Assembly (NCBI GenBank): GCA_002269645.1
Contig: NIVC01001952.1
Coordinates: 62,001-126,000 of the forward strand
DNA: 64,000 nucleotides
Origin: Macrostomum lignano
Lineage: Eukaryota
Reading direction: 5' to 3'
In this document: positions 7,339 through 20,298 of the stretch, one piece after another
Layout: each line of letters opens with the position of its first letter
Numbering within the stretch: position 1 is the first letter of the stretch
Notes under the pieces: generated by a model
The model's input: the letters and a program-made list of their open reading frames with translations, nothing else
Database searches by the model: none
Told to the model about the DNA's origin: nothing
Program-made: the position numbers and the translations under genes

Positions 7339-8241
7339 GGGGGGGGGGCATCACAAACCCAAAAACTCACAACTCCGAAAAGCGCTTTCCATCATAAACC
7401 CCTAAATATCATAAACCCGAAATATCACAAACCCGAAATATCACAAACCCGAAATATCACAAACCCGAAATATCACAAACCCGAAATATCACAAACCCGA
7501 AATATCATAAACCCGAAATATCATAGGTCCGAAAACCAAAATAGCAGCGCCCATCACAAACGGGTTTCGACGACTTATGATATTTCGGGTTTATGATATT
7601 TCGGGTTCGTGATATTTCGGGTTTAAGATGGGCGCTGCTATTTTGGTTTTCGGACTTATGATATTTCGGGTTTATGATATTTCGGGTTTGTGATTTTTCG
7701 GGTTTGTGATATTTCGGGTTTGTGATATTTCGGGTTTGTGATATTTCGGGTTTGTGATATTTCGGGTTCGTGATATTTCGGGTTTGTGATGGACGCTGCT
7801 ATTTTGGTTTTCGGACTTATGATATTTCGGGTTTATGATATTTCGGGTTTATGATATTTCGGGTTTGTGATTTTTCGGGTTTGTGATATTTCGGGTTTGT
7901 GATATTTCGGGTTTATGATTTTTCGGGTTTGTGATATTTCGGGTTTGTGATATTTCGGGTTCGTGATATTTCGGGTTTGGGATGGACGCTGCTATTTTGG
8001 TTTTCGGACTTATGATATTTCGGGTTTATGATATTTCGGGTTTGTGATATTTCGGGTTTGTGAAATTTCGGGTTTGTGATGGGCGCTGCTATTTTGGTTT
8101 TCGGACTTATGATATTTCGGGTTTATGATATTTCGGGTTTGTGATATTTCGGGTTTGTGATATTTCGGGTTTGTGATATTTCGGTTTTATGATGGAAAGT
8201 GCTTTCGGAGTGTGACTTTTCGGGTTTATGACGGCGACCCC
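7339..8241. mobile_element. Non-autonomous foldback-type DNA transposon (MULE/FB-like or hAT-like) built from 16-bp subterminal repeats
   Basis: Direct flanks TGCAACTC at 7331-7338 and 8242-8249 (9 bp CTGCAACTC if the end is placed 1 nt inward). Imperfect ~50-bp TIRs (7351-7400 vs 8181-8230). The 16-bp unit ATCACAAACCCGAAAT switches orientation at ~7565, with a 32-bp module GATGGGCGCTGCTATTTTGGTTTTCGGACTTA interspersed. Confidence 0.8.
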
Positions 8242-9073
8242 TGCAACTCTATATTCTAATTGAGCAATATTTTAAAGAAGAAATCCTCACATGATAGTTT
8301 CGTTTATCAACTTGTCGAATTAAAAAGAGCCATAAATCTTCGTCATTAGTATGATCTGTATGTATTGCTCACAATGTAAAAAGAAATTTTGGTTACAGAA
8401 ATCTGTCATGCTGTTTACTGGCCATTGAACTCGTCCGACTCGTCTCGTCCGGTGGGCGAACTTTTTTCTTAGCATCATGCCCATTAAAATGCTCTCTGGC
8501 CTCTGTGGAGAGGCAGCCAACAAAGATGGTTAAAGAGATTCTCAGTCTTGCATTCCATTAGGCATCAATATTGCATCAGTCCACATGTATAGAGGCTAAA
8601 ATGTACAGTTAGAGCAGCTCATCATAGCAGTTCTCTGCTTTGTAGTTCACTCAGACCCACACGTTTGGATACATGATGCCTCGATTTCATACTCGAACCA
8701 GAAGCTGAATGTCGAGCTAAAAATAAAAGCAGAGTTGGCATTTCTGGTTCTGTCGAACGTCGATCGCAGTTAAGCCGACTTGCTCGTATAAGGGAATACA
8801 TTGTATAAGTTACTGTTTCAGGAGGATCTTCATGTGACTTAGCAGGCGAAAATAACTCTTAAGTCTTGGCCCGACACCAGGAGGGGGACCGCTAGTGACG
8901 GACTCTTCCCAGCGTTCTAGCTCAAGGGCGCGGTGAAAACCTACGTGTTAGGCGTTATAGGGTACGAGAAGGATCTTCAGTTGCCTTCACTAGTAAGCAG
9001 CCGTCAACAGATTTCAAGTGTAAATTCAACAATAAACATAAGACAGGAATATTGTGAGAAAGACTCTTCGCAG

Positions 9074-9841
<768 letters not shown>

Positions 9842-10051
9842 GGGTAGACTCATAATCGTCAAAGTATGATGAGCCTTGACATCTTCTCAATTATTTTGCC
9901 ATCGTTACATGTCTTGGCTAAAATACAGAGCTAAAAATATACACGTGAGGAAGTCAAGAAAATTTTATTTCTAAAATAGCTCGTACTCGTATCTCTTATA
10001 ATCCTCTACTAGCTATTCAATTGCTGAGTTGAAGCAGTGCACAGTTGCTAA

Positions 10052-11297
10052 TGTTATGCCGTGGCTTTCGCCTGAGATAGAACAAGGATTTCCCTGGGTG
10101 GTCGGGTAGGTCTTGTTATCCCACCGCTGCCACCAGTGTAATGGCTGTGCCTACTGCTTCCTCTGTCTGTCCTCGCTATCTAGCACGGCCGGTAGCTGGC
10201 CTGAGTGGTCTAGCACTATGGTCCGAATTAACCCCTCTTAGTCTCCACTGAGTACAGTTAGATAATAACCGAGTATTGGTAGTTGGGTTGCTGCCACCTT
10301 GTAGGTCTACAGGTGATATCCTCGACAGGTTACCCCTAGGTAGGCCTACTGATAAGTAGAAAATAAATAAGACAAACAAGTCAGTTAAACGTTTATTAAT
10401 GTGAGTAACGGTCACAGGCCGATCCTAAAATATCGTTTAATAGCTCAACTGGTGTCGCAGTAACAAGTCCCAACCCTATTAGGTGTCACTGATGTTGCCC
10501 AACAGCGTAGGTTGTAGGCCACGAGACCAGGTCCAGACGGTGTCGAAGGTCTGGCGAGCTGATGACACAAAGACCTGCGGCAATCTTAATGAGCAAATGG
10601 CAGCTGCAACAAGGATTTGTTAGCAGGTTATCCCTAGGAAAAGCGTCTAGCGATCTGCCTAAGCTAGTTCGTCTAGGAAAAGCATCTAGGAATACTAGCC
10701 TTTGCTCGAAGCCAAGCAGGCGGTCTCCGAGAGGATCGAGATCGTCTCCTGAACGAGGATGGTCTCTTTGGGCCTTCACCTACTCTGTATTTATACTAAA
10801 ATTCGGGGGTCTTAGGGCCAATGGGAAGCTCAGAGGCAGTTCCGTGGCAGATCCCATGGCAGTTCCGTGGACTACCCGGAGCCAGGAGCGATCTTGGAGA
10901 TGCCCATAAGACATCTGCCTCATCATGCAGCCTCCGCATGGCCTGCTGGTACACTGCTTGCATGTTGCCGCATGCAAGGAGTGCAACCAAGACCCCACGA
11001 GATCCTACCCCGGGCGGAGAGCTATGCTCTCACTCCCGCTGACTAAATAAGCCTGTACTAAAGGAGAAATATCCCACTGACTAATGTTTCTATTTTTAGC
11101 CCATTGCAGACTGCGCCAGGGGGAGAGGGGGAGAGAGTTTCTCTCCCTGTCCCGCGACAGCTGCACACCTGAGCCTGCACAAGGGAAGGGGAGGAAGGGA
11201 CAGCCCTATGCCCAGCTCCCACTGCTGCAGCCCAAGCACTAACTGACTAAGAGGGGATCCCAGGAGCAGCCTATGCTAGCTACGCTGGATCACCACA
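10052..11297 (-). repeat. 3' LTR of the Gypsy element (1246 bp)
   Basis: Minus strand TGTGGTGATCC...GGCATAACA. TATAAAT-like box at 10789-10795 and AATAAA at 10392-10397 on the minus strand. The ORF track is identical to the other LTR at a constant offset. Confidence 0.97.
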
Positions 11298-11309
11298 CCC
11301 ACCCCACCT
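11298..11309 (-). other. Polypurine tract (PPT)
   Basis: AGGTGGGGTGGG on the minus strand, abutting the TG of the 3' LTR. Confidence 0.75.
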
Positions 11310-11504
11310 GAAAAAGAAGAAGCGACACCAGGAGGTTCTTCATCAAGTAAGGTAAGTCAATGTATTTAATAAGTCATGTAGGTATCAATTAGAGAAAGGC
11401 CATAGGCCAATACACAGAAGCTGATAGTTATACTGAAAGGCCTGAGCCAATACGCCTGTGAGGCCATATGCCCCACGATGAGCTACTGTAGACGAGCGTC
11501 TCCG

Positions 11505-14500
11505 TTAATGGGCCGGCCTCGCCGTATTCAGCAGAGCGAGGGCCTCGGCTGATAGGGCCGGCATGCGGCCGAGATCTTGAGCTGCTCTGCGTACTGCGGC
11601 CTCCAACGCCACGGCGTAATGCCGATATGGCATGAGCAAAGAGCGCGTTCTCGTGAAGGCTTCGTTGATGAGGGCGCGCCGCTCATCCTCAGCCATAGCC
11701 TTTAGTGCAATGGTTTGCGGTGTGGACCAGGCTGTTATTTCTCCGGTATACGCGGCTTTCAGCAGAATGGCCGCGATCATCTGCTTGATAGGCTCCCTGG
11801 CCGGCTGCGACTGGCTGCTACAGGCCGTCCCGCCACTGCTGGCCGGTGCCACCTTGCTAGGAGGGGGGCGGCTTCGCCCTCCCAGCCTTTCCAAGGCCGT
11901 CGGCCGTCCAGCGGGCTGCCAGTTGGCCGCGCGCTGCCGGGAGCGACTCCTCGATGGTCCTGCCGCTGCCCGGCCTCTGGCCGGGGGCTTCTCCAACAGC
12001 GCCGTCTTCCTAGGGGTTGGCTCTGTTTGAGGCCCGGCCACAGCCTGGACGTTCGTGTCGACTCGCAATAATGTACGGCGGGTAATGCCGATGGGCGCTG
12101 TAACCGGCGGGCCAGACGGTATTGGCGTTGGCTGGGTCTTCACCCGCCCTTCATCGGGACGCGGTGATGATGACTCGATCGGCTCGAAAGAGTCGTTCGA
12201 AGCTGACAGAGAGAGCTGCTGCTCTAGAGGCATCTCGTCCTCGCTCATGATGGTGCTGGAATGCGGAAAGAAGCGCCTTATTGAAGAGGCGAGCGCATCC
12301 CTGATCCTAGCAACATAAGATTTAGCTCTAGGATTCATTATTAGTCTATCTGGGGCTCGGCGGTCTCTCCGCGGGCGCTCAGCAACAGGCTGAGGGTCCG
12401 GGGGCACCGCTTCGGGCTGTTCTATGTCCCTAGGTGTTTCAGGTTGCTCATGAACAGCTACCCCATTTTTATTCATTTCAGGTTCGGCGACTTCTGGGAT
12501 CGCTGCTAGTGCTGCGGCCGGACGCAGAAAGTAGCGCGGAGCCCAGTCGTCATTATCGTCATCGAGCTCGTCAACGTCATCGGCGACTTCGCCGGTATTC
12601 TGAGAGGCAGTGGTTTCTATGGCAACGCGACGCTTACGCGGCGGCCCAGCACGGTGCTCAGCTGCCCGGCCAGCTGGCTCTGGATAGTCAGCTTGCGGAA
12701 CCGGTAGCATATTGCGACGGTGCACCACCAACTCCTCTCGACGAGCCCTAGGATTCCGGAGGCGAGGTCTGATCTTGTAGACAACTTCTCCTTTGCGCTC
12801 TACTACTTCATACACAGCCTTGCGCGGTCTGTGAAATTTCTGCGCTTCCCAAGACTGATCTAAGACTGGATTGTTCAGGAAGACTAGGTCACCCGGTGAG
12901 AGCTGCTTGGCCTTCGGGCGATTCTCATAATGTTCATCGCGAAGTTCTTGATGCAGCTTCACACGGTCCTGGGCTAACTGATTAGCTTCCTCTAGTCTCT
13001 TCTGGAAGTCTTGGACGTACGTTGGCAAGTCCGGATATTCAGGTGGGACCCGAAGCTCATTATCAATGGGCATCCGGATTCTCTTCCAAAGACCAAGAAG
13101 TAGGGCGTAAACCCTGTAACCGGGTGAACGCTAGATCGCAGAGCGATCATGCATGCTGGGAGGAAGGTGTCCCAATCCTGGTGATTCTTCTCCAGCAAGC
13201 ACGTGAGTACACTCTTGATTGTCTTGTTGAGATTTTCCACCTGGCCATTCGAACTAGGATTATACGGCGTTGTAGTCGTGTGCCTAATGCCGTACAGCTC
13301 ACAAAACTTCTTAAAGTCCTTTCCAGTGAAATTCGTTCCTTGGTCGGTGTGCAGCCACGCTGGTACACCGTACTCCGGAAACAATCTTTCCTGAAGAATC
13401 TTGACTACGGTCTTGGTCTTCTGGTTCCGCATAGGGAACGCAAAAGGGTATTTTGAAGTAGCATCGCATAGCGTCAGAATATAGCGGTGGCCAGCTCGCG
13501 AAGGCTGCGAGATTGGGCCGACAACGTCGCAGTGTAGCCGCCCCATCACTTCACAGACTGGGAAGCTCTGCACAGGCACGGCTTCGCGACGGCGAGTCTT
13601 GCTCTCCAGGCAAACTCGACATCGGGCCACGTAGGCCTTAACCGCTTTGCTCAAAGACGGCCTCCAAAACCTTTGTCTAACCCGAAGATAGGTCTTAGTT
13701 TCGCCAAGGTGTCCACTCAAGGGAGCATCATGGAGCTCTTTGAACACCTGGTCATCTAGACTCTTCGGCAGCACAATGCGCGGTGGACGGTCTGCTATGT
13801 CTTCATCGTAGACGAGCAGGTTGTCTACTAGCCGCAACATATCAAAGTAGCCTAGTAGGTTGCGCGTATCCCTACTAAGACGTAGTCGGGCGTCAAAGGA
13901 CGGCTTGGGCGAACTAGTCGCTAAAAGATTTCTGACGAACTCAATGTCCGGGTCCTTCTGCTGCTCGAGGAGCAGTTGGTCTCGCTTCAGAGGTTCGGAC
14001 AGAAAATCACTAAGCAGAACACGACAGCGTGGAGGAACATCCTCACTAACGCTACGGTTCGCTGATTCCGTTATTGAAGCAGATAATGGCCTTGCTGCGT
14101 CGTCGGTCCGGATTCCTGCGGTCAGGTCACCTGAGACACGAGGGCGAACAGCTTCTATGGCCGTAGGTGCGGTAGTGTGGCGTCCAACTGGGGCAAAGTC
14201 CACAGCTAAACCAGCAACCTTGGCTGCCCATTCTGAGCGGCGGTCCACTGAGGGACAACATGTCGCATCAGTCTGGCAGACAGCCTCGGACGCTCCAGCC
14301 GAACAACGGTTCACTGAGGAACAACATGTTGAGTCGGCAGAAACGGCCGCAATAACGGGTGTCGGACATCGGTCCACTGAGGGACAACATGATGAGCCGG
14401 CGACGGCAATACGAGATTCCTGCGAGGCAGAACTGCTGGATGTTACTTGGTCGGCGTCTTCGACTAATCCGAGGGCTGAGGGTACAGTGGCCTCATTTTC

Positions 14501-16876
14501 TGTCTGGTTGGGTGTCCGTGCTCCAGGACGACAGTCATCGAACTCCGGACCGTCCGGCTTTCTTGATAAGCTGTCTGCGTTCTGGTGCAAACTTCCCTTC
14601 CGATGAATGACAGCAAAGTCGAATTCACTTAGCCGTTCGACCCAACGACCCAAGATCCCTTCGGCTTCAGTCTGGCGAATGAGCCAAAGAAGAGCCCTGT
14701 GGTCTGTTCTAACCTCAAATCTCTTGCCGATTAAGTAGTAACGAAAGTGCCTCATCGAGTCAACAACGGCCAAAAGCTCACGCTTGGTGTTGTTGTACCT
14801 CGTTTCAGGCTCGCGCAATTTCCGACTAAAATAGGCAACAGGCCGCTCCGCACCATCGGATTGGCGCTGGCCTAAACAGGCGCCGATTCGGAAACCTGAG
14901 GCATCACAATCCAGGACGAAGACTGTGTCTGGGTCTGTGTTGTACTCTGGGTACGCGAGGACCTCAGTAGAGCACAGCTTCTTCTTGAGCTCATCGAAAG
15001 CTTTCGAGTGTTGCTCTGTCCATAGCCCCTTGAACCCAACAAGGTTCTTCCGAGTCAATTGATGCAACGGGGCAGCAATTTCGGCGTAATTCTTAACGAA
15101 TTTGGCATAGTAGTTACAGAGACCTAGAAAGCTCTGCAGCTGCTTGACTGTCTGAGGACGCGGCCAGTCTAGTATCTGCTGTACCTTGTCTTCATTAGTC
15201 CTAATGCCTCGTCTATCGACTACATGTCCGAGATAGTGCAACTCTGTCTTAAACAGATGGCATTTGCGTGGCTTTAGCTTAAGATTGGCTTCAATGAGCC
15301 GCCTGAACATTTCGCGAAGATGTTCGAGGTGCTCCTCGAAGGCAATACTATGAATGACAATGTCATCCATGTATCCTAAGCGAACTTAGTGATACCGTCT
15401 AGCAGCATATTGATGCATCGCTGGAAGGCTCCAGGGCTATCGCGAAGCCCCATAGGCAAGACGTTGAACTCAAACTGACCTCGATTGATCACTGAGAAGG
15501 CTGTGCGAAAACGATCCTCTTCACGCAACGGGATCTGATAGAACCCTTGAGCAAGATCCAAGCTGCTGAACCATTGAGATCCCCGGAGACATGCAAACGT
15601 CTCCTGGATAGATGGCAACGGATATGGTCGATATTCGCATCGTTCATTCAGCTCGCGATAGTCGTGGACTATGCGGACTGATTTATCCTTCTTAGGCACT
15701 ACTAAGATAGGAGAGCTGTAGCTTGAATAAGATGGCCTGATCAAGCCCTTCTCTAGCATCTCATCTAGCAGCTGATTGACCTGATCTTGCAGGTGCGGGG
15801 GACCCTGCGAGCTGGAATCCTAACTGGAGTCTCGTCCGCATGACGATCTGATGGGTCACCAGGTGAGTCAGACCGTGATCAAGAGTGTGCGTGGAGAACG
15901 CATTACGCGACTCTCTGATCAGCTCACGAACCTGGGACTTCTGGTCCTCCGTGATCGAATCGCCTATCTCTATCTCATTGATCCAATCGTCACTGGCTGA
16001 ATTGATGTTATCGTCTAGGTGCAACTTGCGCACAGGTGTTGCTTTCAGTTCTGGATAGTACTCGAGGTCTTGCGTCCGGAGCGGTGTGGCAAGGCCCACC
16101 AAGGCTCCTTTGGCTATATTAACTGGAAAGTTGTTAGGATTAACAACTTCCATGCAGCCTTTGCCTTCATGCATCGTTACCAATGCTGCAGATGCGCGGA
16201 CCTGGGAAAGCCCAGCGCGGAGTCCAGATCTGAGTGGTTCAACCACTGCTGGCACTCCATAATTCGATTCTTTGCCACGTGCCAGTTGCACAGATATGAG
16301 GCCAGAACTTCGAGCAGGAATCTGATGTTTTCCGGCAACATAGACTCTGCACGAGGTTGGCTCACGGCGCGTATAGCGCACGGGTACACAAGTACCAGTA
16401 GTGAGGGTAAGCATTCCTGTCTGGAACTCCAAGGTCCGACAGTGCTTCCTCATAAAATCAATGCCTAGGAGATTCTCCTGATCGCCGCTTACAATGTAGA
16501 ATTCAGCTTCAGCTGAGAAATCTCCGAAGACAACATCAAGCATAACCTTACCGGTTAGCTGTAATTCAGAACCATCATAGGTTAGAATACGATCGGAATA
16601 AGTAGGTGTAACTACGCATGCATGTGCAGTACTGCGCGATAACAATCGCCAAGTAGAAAGGCCCATCAGGTTCAGTCTGCTCCCGCTGTCGAGAAGCAAG
16701 GGAACCTGTTGGCCGAAAATAAGCGCAGTTACATAAGGATCAGCACCAGAGTTATATACATTATTTACAAAGGAAGAGTCTACGGTATCGCCAGACTCTC
16801 CAGACTGCTTTAGTGCGACTTCGGGGGTTGGCCCTGGAGAGGGTCCTGGTTGGCAACCCCCGCCCGGACGTTTCCC
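11505..16876 (-). CDS. pol: Gypsy Pol polyprotein (protease, RT, RNase H, integrase, long C-terminal extension), broken by four single-base deletions in this assembly
   Basis: Protease LLDSGS; RT SSPILVVPKKD, DYRELN, LDLAQGFYQI, MGLRDSP, GYMDD; RNase H LDCDAS/RELLAV/RTDH; integrase H-x7-H..CRVC, LHCDVVGP, HTDQGTNF, VENLN. Frame breaks at ~15841, 15797-15801, 15378-15379 and 13079-13080. Confidence 0.95.
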
Positions 16877-17775
16877 GGCTTCTGAGCCTTGAACTTAGGA
16901 CAGTCAGGCCTCTTGTGGCCTGGTTTACCGCACTCGTGGCACACAATGCCTTGCAGCCTATCTCTGACAGGTGCGGCTGGCGTCTGCTTGAGAAGCTGCT
17001 CAAGCATCTGCTGCTGCTTCTGCAGAACCTCATTCTGATGCCTGATTAGATTCTTAAGCTCATCGTCCTGTCGGGGAACCGTAGCTTTGTCCCCACCAAG
17101 GCTGCGACAGGGTGCGTCTTTGCTGCGGGCAGCAAGCTCACGCGCTGTCTCGATGCGCTTGAAGGCGAACTTGGCGTCCTGTAGAGTCTCTGGACGACCC
17201 CAGTACAGCCGTTCTCTCGCCTCAATTGTAGTTCTGACACCTTTCAGGAACTGATCAACAAGTTCTGATTCGAGCTGAGCTGGCAAGAGATAAGGATAAG
17301 CGAGTTCTCCGAGTTCGCGGAGAGCATCTGCAAACTCGTCAATGTCCTCGTTCTTGCGCTGAGTTCGGCAGCGGAAATCTTCTCGGAATTCCTGTGAGCC
17401 GCCTCTCTTTGAGAATCTCTCAATCAGCGCTTCCTTAAACTCTTCGTACTCCAGATGGTCTGGCAAGTTCAGGCGCAGGACCGAAGCATACGCCGTGTGC
17501 ACGTCAAGGTTGGCGAGCAACTCCGCCTTCCTGTGGCAGGCACGAATGTCTTCGGTATCGCAGCGAAGATCGAAGGCTTTGATCCACGTGCGGATGTCTT
17601 GGGATGGCGTGTATTTAGCCATCTTGACATGCTGCCTGACTTGGCCTATACCAAGCTGGCGCTCCAGTGCATCAGCGAGACGATCAAGACGTTCGCCTAG
17701 TACCGGTTCCTCAGCTCCTGCTCCAGCACCATCGTCAGGTGGTGCCATTGAAGCACGACTGCTGGCAATAGACAT
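16810..17775 (-). CDS. gag: Gypsy Gag with CCHC zinc knuckle, 321 aa
   Basis: Retrotransposon capsid-like region (FREDFRCRTQRKNEDIDEFADALRELG) and knuckle CHECGKPGHKRPDC. Starts 66 nt after the PBS. Confidence 0.95.
   Translation of the reverse strand: MSIASSRASMAPPDDGAGAGAEEPVLGERLDRLADALERQLGIGQVRQHVKMAKYTPSQDIRTWIKAFDLRCDTEDIRACHRKAELLANLDVHTAYASVLRLNLPDHLEYEEFKEALIERFSKRGGSQEFREDFRCRTQRKNEDIDEFADALRELGELAYPYLLPAQLESELVDQFLKGVRTTIEARERLYWGRPETLQDAKFAFKRIETARELAARSKDAPCRSLGGDKATVPRQDDELKNLIRHQNEVLQKQQQMLEQLLKQTPAAPVRDRLQGIVCHECGKPGHKRPDCPKFKAQKPGNVRAGVANQDPLQGQPPKSH
16822..16876 (-). promoter_or_regulatory. Programmed -1 ribosomal frameshift signal (gag to pol)
   Basis: Slippery heptamer G GGA AAC (plus 16870-16876) in the gag frame, a 7-nt spacer, then stem CGGGGGTTG...CAACCCCCG (16862-16822). 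The -1 frame is open from there into the protease. Confidence 0.85.
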
Positions 17776-17840
17776 TGCTATGATTACTAAGTGAGACTAA
17801 GACGTAGGTGGACGAAGGATTGACGTGGTCGTTTTACCGG

Positions 17841-17858
17841 ATCCCACCGCTGCCACCA
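17841..17858 (-). other. Primer-binding site complementary to the tRNA-Leu 3' end
   Basis: TGGTGGCAGCGGTGGGAT lies 1 nt after the 5' LTR. Its complement ATCCCACCGCTGCCA+CCA matches the familiar 3' end of metazoan tRNA-Leu(AAG/TAG). Confidence 0.9.
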
Positions 17859-17859
17859 G

Positions 17860-19105
17860 TGTTATGCCGTGGCTTTCGCCTGAGATAGAACAAGGATTTC
17901 CCTGGGTGGTCGGGTAGGTCTTGTTATCCCACCGCTGCCACCAGTGTAATGGCTGTGCCTACTGCTTCCTCTGTCTGTCCTCGCTATCTAGCACGGCCGG
18001 TAGCTGGCCTGAGTGGTCTAGCACTATGGTCCGAATTAACCCCTCTTAGTCTCCACTGAGTACAGTTAGATAATAACCGAGTATTGGTAGTTGGGTTGCT
18101 GCCACCTTGTAGGTCTACAGGTGATATCCTCGACAGGTTACCCCTAGGTAGGCCTACTGATAAGTAGAAAATAAATAAGACAAACAAGTCAGTTAAACGT
18201 TTATTAATGTGAGTAACGGTCACAGGCCGATCCTAAAATATCGTTTAATAGCTCAACTGGTGTCGCAGTAACAAGTCCCAACCCTATTAGGTGTCACTGA
18301 TGTTGCCCAACAGCGTAGGTTGTAGGCCACGAGACCAGGTCCAGACGGTGTCGAAGGTCTGGCGAGCTGATGACACAAAGACCTGCGGCAATCTTAATGA
18401 GCAAATGGCAGCTGCAACAAGGATTTGTTAGCAGGTTATCCCTAGGAAAAGCGTCTAGCGATCTGCCTAAGCTAGTTCGTCTAGGAAAAGCATCTAGGAA
18501 TACTAGCCTTTGCTCGAAGCCAAGCAGGCGGTCTCCGAGAGGATCGAGATCGTCTCCTGAACGAGGATGGTCTCTTTGGGCCTTCACCTACTCTGTATTT
18601 ATACTAAAATTCGGGGGTCTTAGGGCCAATGGGAAGCTCAGAGGCAGTTCCGTGGCAGATCCCATGGCAGTTCCGTGGACTACCCGGAGCCAGGAGCGAT
18701 CTTGGAGATGCCCATAAGACATCTGCCTCATCATGCAGCCTCCGCATGGCCTGCTGGTACACTGCTTGCATGTTGCCGCATGCAAGGAGTGCAACCAAGA
18801 CCCCACGAGATCCTACCCCGGGCGGAGAGCTATGCTCTCACTCCCGCTGACTAAATAAGCCTGTACTAAAGGAGAAATATCCCACTGACTAATGTTTCTA
18901 TTTTTAGCCCATTGCAGACTGCGCCAGGGGGAGAGGGGGAGAGAGTTTCTCTCCCTGTCCCGCGACAGCTGCACACCTGAGCCTGCACAAGGGAAGGGGA
19001 GGAAGGGACAGCCCTATGCCCAGCTCCCACTGCTGCAGCCCAAGCACTAACTGACTAAGAGGGGATCCCAGGAGCAGCCTATGCTAGCTACGCTGGATCA
19101 CCACA
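17860..19105 (-). repeat. 5' LTR of the Gypsy element (1246 bp)
   Basis: Appears identical to 10052-11297 and is followed on the minus strand by the PBS. Confidence 0.97.
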
Positions 19106-20298
19106 CTAAGGAATTTTCCGGTAAACAGCTCAAATAAATTAAAAACAGTTAAATGGAGAAGCAACCTAAACAAGCTCTTGTAACGACTCTGATTATCAAT
19201 AAATCAAGCGTTCCCGAAAATAGCCGGCTTTTCAACAGCAGCTTTTTAATTGCTGCTTTCATAATTGATTGATTAGAGATAAAACCATTTTGAACGATAA
19301 AAGCCCACCTAGGAAATATTTTTTGTTTTAATAGAGTGAAATGAGCAGTTTTCCATTTTTTCAGGGTGAAATCGGCCGAACTGCTGTCCCAATAATTATC
19401 CAACTTCAAAGCTGCTTAAAGAGAAATTTCCCAGCAAAGAGGCAGAGTCATTCTCTGATAATACCCGAAGGATTATGTCAGTCCAAATCGATAATCGAAT
19501 TGAATTATTTAAAAAATCTTTTGTTTTGATCAAGCCAGATGTTACGTGGGCGGATCAGCCCACGCAACTGTGCTCGCAGCGTTGCCAATGCACTCTCCGA
19601 GAACTGTTCTCACTCTGGCCTGCAGCAACTGAGTTTCATTTAATGAATTTCATTCATCTGGCCATGAGAGAAGATGGAAACAGAATCTCCATTTAAAGCC
19701 AGTCAGTCAGTCAGATGGACAATAAAAAGTCGGATCAACGGCGGTAATTTGTATCTGACTGCCGATCTCGGGCGACGGCATTTTGACCATCCCATCCATC
19801 TGCGGACGTAGCTATCTGATAAAGTGCAACTTCACCCACAGCTGCAAAGCTTATTGACGGCTACTCAATCGTGTGTTACAAGTTCTCGCACGCGAATAGG
19901 GACAGAACGGTGTTTATAACCAAACATGGCAGAGTATAATTCATGCCAGCTCTTATCTTTCAATTTCGTAAAATCTACCCACGTTCCCAACACCACTGAG
20001 CGCTCTTCATCCTGTATCCTCCAACCTCTCCATTTCTATTCTAATAATGAAAGCCCTCCTACGCTGATAGGAGCCCCTAGCAGCCTTTAAAGCAGAAATC
20101 AGAGATGCTCCGAGCCAATCGGAAGCCTCCGGTCTCCATTCCAACCCCTATTTCTCTGCCTTGGCATAGCCTTGATATTTGGCGTCACCAGAGCTGCACC
20201 GGGGTTCGCTTGACTTGACGGCTTCGCGACAAGGCGGAGGAGAAAATCGCACAGACTTCATAAGCTTCGAACCCCATAGCAACTGCAACCGAGCGCCA

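Follow-up and report, generated by a model that had tools for sequence, protein, structure and literature searches.

The end of an LTR and its neighbouring primer binding site (PBS) are usually treated as one fixed junction. This is called into question by a retrotransposon in contig NIVC01001952.1 of Macrostomum lignano, both LTRs of which contain a second, complete LTR end and PBS upstream of the terminal one. Is this inner unit a relic, or a place at which the LTR boundary can move? In the 64-kb stretch of DNA analysed here (referred to as the window) and in related copies, this Gypsy clade has at its U5-PBS junction a series of cassettes, each composed of a spacer, an LTR end and a PBS, with zero to three units among copies. 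It is a natural array with a moving LTR boundary, seen in young copies and in several families.

The element is a Ty3/Gypsy retrotransposon located on the minus strand at 10052-19105 of the window, about 9 kb in size and coding. It shares with the canonical junction of Ty3/Gypsy elements (Metaviridae) the direct LTRs with TG...CA ends, a 4-bp target site duplication (TSD; CTAA on the plus strand at 10048-10051 and 19106-19109), a polypurine tract adjoining the 3' LTR (11298-11320), an 18-nt PBS after a 1-nt spacer and the order of gag, RT, RNase H and integrase. It differs from the canonical junction in that one or more complete units of end and PBS lie within the LTR, in numbers that vary among copies and between the ends of a copy, and in having a conserved fold-back motif. 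The 3' LTR (10052-11297) and the 5' LTR (17860-19105) are both 1246 bp long with no differences between them, as in a young insertion.

Pfam matches followed the Gypsy order (gag, then RVT_1, RT_RNaseH, Integrase_H2C2 and rve), but the coding region as assembled is split over five separate frames, all on the minus strand. These are a gag with a CCHC knuckle, for which both Pfam matches were just below the cut-off (16810-17796), a frame between gag and RT without a Pfam match (15761-16894), the N-terminal part of the RT in a frame of its own (15376-15819), a pol piece with the C-terminal part of the RT, RNase H and the integrase (H2C2 and core; 12992-15385), and a 541-aa open frame after the integrase core (11505-13130), the only Pfam match of which was a weak one to Integrase_p58_C under the curated cut-off, with its C-terminal part left unassigned. 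By position, the protease would be expected in the frame at 15761-16894, where no Pfam match to an aspartic protease was obtained. The relatives of the RT were Ty3/17.6/297/412-related Pol proteins and unnamed Macrostomum lignano proteins (61-68% identity), and a search of other species with the gag yielded one relative. From the long LTRs and the 4-bp TSD we take the Gmr1/Osvaldo cluster to be a candidate placement. Three imperfect repeats of 63-66 nt occupy the linker between RNase H and integrase (14215-14391), and just outside the 3' LTR are a 16-nt tandem repeat (8000-8225) and a long tetranucleotide microsatellite (about 8900-9850).

The original prediction of a perfect 18-nt tRNA-Leu PBS in each LTR, 85 bp from the outer one, was confirmed to the nucleotide. 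The window contains exactly three exact copies, and the next best match has 3 mismatches: the outer, canonical PBS followed by the leader (17841-17858), the inner PBS of the 5' LTR (17926-17943) and the inner PBS of the 3' LTR (10118-10135), all on the minus strand, like the features below. Both copies at the 5' end of the element are preceded by an ACA end and a 1-nt spacer. The inner LTR end is at 17945-17952 in the 5' LTR and at 10137-10144 in the 3' LTR, where it reads CCATTACA in sense; in other copies this end is flanked by TSDs. The cassette spacer and outer LTR end occupy 17860-17925 in the 5' LTR, where together with 17841-17859 they form the 85-nt repeat unit, and 10052-10117 in the 3' LTR. 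The 66 nt predicted between the inner PBS and the LTR end were correct in length, but already include the terminal GCATAACA (58 nt plus 8). An anti-PBS motif within the spacer (17905-17918) is predicted by RNA folding to form a 12-bp fold-back on the inner PBS at -18.2 kcal/mol, and by LTR identity the same pairing is predicted for 10097-10110 in the 3' LTR.

A TATAAA (18598-18603), likely to be the promoter box, and an AATAAA (18200-18205), likely to be the polyadenylation signal, are located at LTR positions 503 and 901, as identified by motif only, while the inner PBS starts at 1163. Both PBS are downstream of the two motifs, which would place the inner PBS inside U5, and we infer that the genomic RNA has both of them in its 5' end. 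The PBS matches the tRNA-Leu(AAG) and tRNA-Leu(TAG) genes of the host (12 genomic matches; 4 of 4 loci scanned were tRNA-Leu). Exact matches to the PBS numbered 666 genome-wide versus 0 for the reversed control, so the match is not due to chance. Contigs from an independent short-read run covered the outer PBS and spacer (17841-17923) with 0 differences and the spacer, inner PBS and U5 (17894-18247) with 1 difference; since they span both junctions, the two-PBS form is no assembly artefact.

To describe family A, the family of the window element, we read all 65 of its LTR sites, 63 of which were obtained with an anchor upstream of the cassette and two in another search, and collapsed them by hand, by flank, to 39 insertion events. 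The 85-nt cassette was present in 22 events, in up to two copies per LTR. Ends after one or two cassettes were verified by TSDs in 18 of these, including one solo LTR with two cassettes, while four were without verification. Seven recent events (at least 92% identical) ended at the inner end, five of them with TSDs; U5 is longer in these short copies (about 1245 bp) and only one PBS is present, as exemplified by a full-length copy with TSDs and 1 LTR difference (C1746). The 85-nt cassette was lacking in ten older events (77-92%), among them one with three intact PBS in 35-nt units (C251). Copies thus end with TSDs at either of two LTR ends, as the original prediction had it, and its suggestion that further modules of end and PBS could be added holds for up to two per LTR in family A and three in a sister family. 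Nor is the inner PBS decayed: for the 22 cassette insertions, minority cells amounted to 0 of 396 in the PBS, 1 of 308 in the anti-PBS motif and 192 of 7480 upstream. Since variation was low in the remainder of the spacer as well (5 of 506 cells), the constancy of the cassette in family A is partly a matter of youth.

The long U5 variant of family A holds decayed remnants of end and PBS, indicating that U5 keeps a record of earlier rounds; absorption of old ends is a concrete route by which U5 can grow. In C616 the adjacent cassettes are of different haplotypes, and in three groups the same U5 haplotypes were present in both short and long forms. These observations bear on the reading that the inner PBS never primes and is the relic of a duplication that serves as a site of recombination or landing, the short copies descending from persisting single-PBS lineages that swap ends. 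The ten older events without the 85-nt cassette and the single-PBS copy C1746 agree with this reading. The shared haplotypes do not, and short and long forms also intermix on a tree of 28 family-A LTRs (one per event; built without the cassette region and limited to events with a full LTR start), so a single short lineage does not account for them. The seven short copies required at least 5 changes on this tree, all forced by starred branches, compared with a mean of 6.4 after shuffling (58 of 500 shuffles were as low as 5), and four of the seven nested within long-form clades, although the tree is mostly based on U3 and recombination can shuffle U5 onto a different U3 history. Short family-A modules without the fold-back motif decay by deletion, which also argues against a passive relic.

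We extended the comparison to the sister families B-E, which are 55-69% identical to family A in the RT-RNase H region. All four contain a related cassette. Between the LTRs of family A and those of families B, C and D, alignment was confined to the cassette, with one further motif of 20 nt in the case of family B, and each family's cassette ends with that family's own LTR end. The conserved spacer start after the 3' part of the PBS was found at 363 genomic sites; the B-E form had 226 matches and the A form 38. In the sister families the arrays comprise one to three inner PBS. Multi-cassette arrays were present in the two LTRs of individual copies (C224, C659 and C981) and in solo LTRs flanked by TSDs, and neighbouring cassettes often differ in sequence. 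The arrangement is real, varies among copies and extends across the clade. That a perfect PBS and the fold-back motif are kept across families with otherwise unalignable LTRs is not what one would expect of a neutral relic. We consider the passive reading rather unlikely. In its favour, an exact cassette match downstream was found in only 32 of the 100 C/D-type LTRs listed, and young full-length copies with a single PBS are frequent in family D. Cassette-free copies transpose well, and the cassette is thus dispensable. Three further copies are of the single-PBS type and short at both ends (C181, C199 and C251).

Arrays also occur beyond these families. A family F (L086, C246) has three or four units of end and PBS with an AT-rich spacer that lacks the fold-back motif. 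Marine metagenome contigs contained three stretches with 2-5 tandem units of an end and a tRNA-Leu PBS (L095-L097), which belong to an unrelated element. This is small, with a palindromic core and no coding frame nearby, and one of the stretches has a 4-bp TSD (L096).

In retroviral replication the priming site fixes the end of U5, and the plus-strand strong-stop DNA ends in a copy of the tRNA that anneals to the PBS complement on the minus strand. Applied to an array of cassettes, the tRNA priming site would set the end of the new 3' LTR, and the plus-strand strong-stop DNA, with the tRNA-copied PBS as its tail, could land on any PBS complement of a minus strand, possibly one made from another RNA packaged in the same particle. 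A cassette would be added if priming is outside and landing inside, and lost if it is the other way round; with both inside, short LTRs followed by PBS-spacer-PBS would result. The predicted hairpin would push priming outward and favour retention of the cassette. The products of gain, loss and asymmetry were all observed among integrated copies, and it is likely that cassettes are gained and lost during reverse transcription.

The asymmetric products were identified among two-ended copies. Of 29 pairs, 26 were scored, the three copies short at both ends (C181, C199 and C251) being read separately. C616, C2657 and C136 are unscored since their 3' ends were absent from the stretches examined, and C255, C1140, C85 and C184 were outside the table. 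In four of the 26 pairs, which were picked by pattern so that the fraction is no rate, the ends differed by one cassette and were flanked by matching TSDs. A family-D copy (C163) has a 996-bp 3' LTR, PBS-spacer-PBS at the 5' side and 1 other LTR difference. In family A, both LTRs of C1967 have one cassette, a second is present at the 5' side only and there are 3 other LTR differences. The remaining two have one cassette more at the 5' side (C440) or at the 3' side (C206), and all their LTR differences are confined to the downstream part of the LTR, which is the signature of two RNA templates. A fifth copy with matching TSDs has unlike cassette sequences at the two ends (C511). Copies marked in this manner log how often the two ends of one insertion stem from different RNAs.

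Priming at the inner site had been predicted to yield 1161-bp LTRs followed by PBS-spacer-PBS. A product of this type exists in family D (C163) and, one cassette up, in family A (C1967), whereas none of the 10 two-ended copies of family A had the 1161-bp form itself. C163 could have arisen by inner priming or by landing of a short-form RNA on a long-form template, routes between which integrated DNA cannot tell. As the passive reading would have it, all four asymmetric copies can be made from two RNAs without inner priming, and since C163 and C1967 are obtainable by inner landing, no copy proves inner priming. Priming at the inner site is what we infer, and landing at the inner site also explains the integrated copies. 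Taken together, the variation in copy number, the TSD-flanked ends at each cassette boundary, the young insertions with unequal ends and the conservation of the PBS and fold-back motif make it probable that the array expands and contracts like an accordion, through the choice of priming site and of plus-strand landing site, with some priming at the inner site and with the hairpin biasing priming outward. In line with this, HIV-1 mutants with altered PBS spontaneously acquired multiple PBS in culture, according to the part of the source consulted (PMC1084362).

Cassette numbers could also have changed in the integrated DNA, if the 26-nt repeats of end and PBS underwent unequal crossover or slippage, or the multi-cassette copies could be assembly errors. 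The extra cassette in C1967 would suit this explanation, being an exact tandem copy with a cassette-cassette junction that was not bridged among the short-read contigs listed, and the assembly is redundant with several duplicated flanks. Arrays present in the 5' and 3' LTRs of one copy, as well as in solo LTRs with TSDs, however, indicate that arrays were transposed, and adjoining cassettes often differ in sequence. Moreover, C511, C206 and C440 need a second template, and the asymmetric C163 and C1967 are very young, as judged from their other LTR differences.

A variant PBS with a 2-nt insertion, hereafter the bulged PBS, argues in the same direction. It was present at 43 places in family D, and at all 30 loci examined (L178-L207) it adjoined the leader and in no case occupied an inner site. 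All 12 inner PBS located upstream of a bulged PBS were unbulged, 11 of them exact. Although the numbers are small, the pattern fits an inner PBS that is copied from the tRNA or inherited with the cassette, and it fits crossover at the DNA level poorly. We consider changes in the DNA or assembly errors extremely unlikely as the source of the arrays. The first 7 nt of the bulged PBS resemble what we take to be a tRNA-Trp PBS. Searches for a tRNA gene corresponding to the bulged PBS gave 0 genomic matches at up to 1 mismatch, and priming by a separate tRNA was rejected on this basis, which falls short of proof of absence. In young copies with identical LTRs, the bulged PBS next to the leader is the sole PBS; two family-B loci (L082, L139) are also listed with this observation. 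Altered PBS in HIV-1 tend to revert, as stated in the part of the report consulted (PMC1084362), so the persistence of the bulged PBS, which is not restored by copying from the tRNA, is unexpected.

The hairpin postulated above derives from the conserved spacer start, which is similar to the tRNA's 3' end and for which pairing with 12 of the PBS's 18 bases is predicted. For the PBS plus 30 nt, the inner sites of A-D yielded -18 to -20 kcal/mol, with 2-9 of 300 shuffles as good, compared with 227-295 of 300 for the outer sites (PBS plus leader); these figures are post hoc since the hairpin was noticed by eye before testing, and the families share the motif by descent while the PBS side cannot covary. 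For family E only a weak hairpin is predicted, matched by 41 of 300 shuffles. The local hairpin was present in both the minimum-energy and the centroid folds of the wider region. The fold of the whole region at 17780-18140 was unremarkable (z = -1.04; 13 of 100 shuffles as good), and we therefore claim only the local hairpin. Of 95 sister cassettes, most of them found with a pattern that overlaps part of the fold-back motif, four break one hairpin pair each. Opening energies within +/-120 nt of context were 16.0/14.9, 13.1/15.0, 14.5/9.0, 17.7/14.9 and 15.8/13.9 for inner versus outer sites, the gaps being small and one of them reversed. No inner-site hairpin was predicted for family F or the metagenome arrays, which are kept nonetheless. 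As modelled, the hairpin may keep the inner primer sites mostly shut. If it proves to be a priming switch, reverse transcription here has a regulatory element that is amenable to tests on short fragments of the natural RNA.

Alternatively, the inner PBS may have another job at the RNA level, as a decoy or sponge for 3' tRNA fragments or as a second tRNA loading site in packaging or dimerisation, with the spacer bound to the D arm. There are indeed further tRNA-Leu complements in U5. A post hoc scan of family A identified a tRNA-Leu complement at 17999-18045, covering the tRNA's 5' end, D arm and variable arm at -56 kcal/mol, the best of 450 windows and only slightly lower than the next (-54.3). 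A 9-nt half-PBS motif at 18098-18106 has counterparts in the LTRs of families B-D, and its C/D form had 553 exact matches in the genome, in C/D-type LTRs. In families A-D (L076, L078 and L081) this motif, which is followed by a short complement, precedes the first full PBS by 100-180 nt; it may represent an old cassette that has collapsed, or else a conserved small hairpin. Multipartite tRNA binding is also known from Ty1, Ty3 and Drosophila gypsy, according to the portion of the source consulted (PMC1635307). A spacer that acts as complement to the D arm was rejected as the main reading, however, since spacer-tRNA duplexes were mostly no better than shuffles (12-212 of 300 as good). Copies without a cassette transpose well. 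The decoy for tRNA-fragment silencing put forward in the original prediction found no support; a site folded into a hairpin would be a poor decoy, and a second site in cis would add a target for silencing. Overall, we regard a separate role for the inner PBS in the RNA as very unlikely.

The arrangement has partial counterparts in known systems. Like the window element, engineered HIV-1 and MLV vectors can contain two PBS on one genome, seen here in the DNA. Such vectors were described by Voronin and Pathak, in 2004 and in a paper on MLV, and initiation at both PBS is reported to be frequent. That multiple PBS can arise during replication is a likeness to the HIV-1 mutants cited above, but the laboratory vectors and HIV-1 revertants are constructs or transient, whereas here the extra PBS is natural, is accompanied by an integrase-competent end, has been retained in diverged families and is apparently masked. 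The genomes of Ty1, Ty3 and Drosophila gypsy also have more than one site complementary to the tRNA, described as a bipartite or multipartite PBS in the part of the source consulted (PMC1635307). Their second site pairs with another region of the tRNA and is near the 3' end (gypsy) or spreads the pairing, whereas here it is a full second 3'-end PBS with an LTR end of its own, able to redefine the LTR boundary. A bipartite PBS of the Ty3/gypsy type was rejected, since the inner site is the same 18-nt complement of the tRNA 3' end and pairing of the spacer to the D arm was mostly at the level of shuffles.

Helenus TRIMs are similar in having tRNA-related sequences in their LTRs, and animal forms have 4-bp TSDs, some of them using tRNA-Leu; Helenus elements are non-autonomous with a tRNA-derived Pol III promoter, and the accessible part of the report mentions no role of complementarity in priming (PMC10886601). 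Helenus/TRIMp3 elements are non-coding, under about 1 kb and have a tRNA-derived LTR promoter, and were rejected as candidates since the element here is 9 kb and coding and ARAGORN predicted 0 tRNA genes in the window. A paper that lists element clusters makes no mention of PBS, primer binding or tRNA in the portion of its main text consulted (PMC12801592). The literature searched describes no natural array of ends and PBS, an arrangement that subscription papers, the earlier classification of elements from this species or Repbase may mention. What is new is the natural, variable array of ends and PBS inside an LTR; the LTR-PBS junction itself is known. It is the natural counterpart of two-PBS experiments so far made with engineered retroviral vectors.

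Finally, we tentatively raise the possibility that the cassette is a selfish element within a selfish element, that is, a 60-95-nt unit that copies itself by plus-strand transfer out of register, draws on the host's tRNA to renew its PBS, is protected from loss by the hairpin, which would suppress priming at inner sites, and can move between families via the shared PBS. The ten older cassette-free events suggest a recent arrival of the cassette in family A. If this reading is true, LTR ends are movable in such clades and U5 is a fossil record of former ends. Annotation of LTRs from consensus sequences will hide or misplace ends in such clades.

Three features of the copies were recorded in addition. 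In family B, the tRNA complement continues in the leader (L076, L082 and L139) for another 4 nt, reaching into the T loop, and gives way to a short tandem repeat. A tandem array of family-A elements with common internal LTRs (C255; L017, L018, L019 and L041) is surrounded by a single TSD, and its last LTR is truncated. Some family-D copies (L142, L153 and L164 versus L089) have LTRs that are only about 82% identical while the start of the leader is nearly the same, a contrast that suggests swapping of LTRs onto a common internal region.
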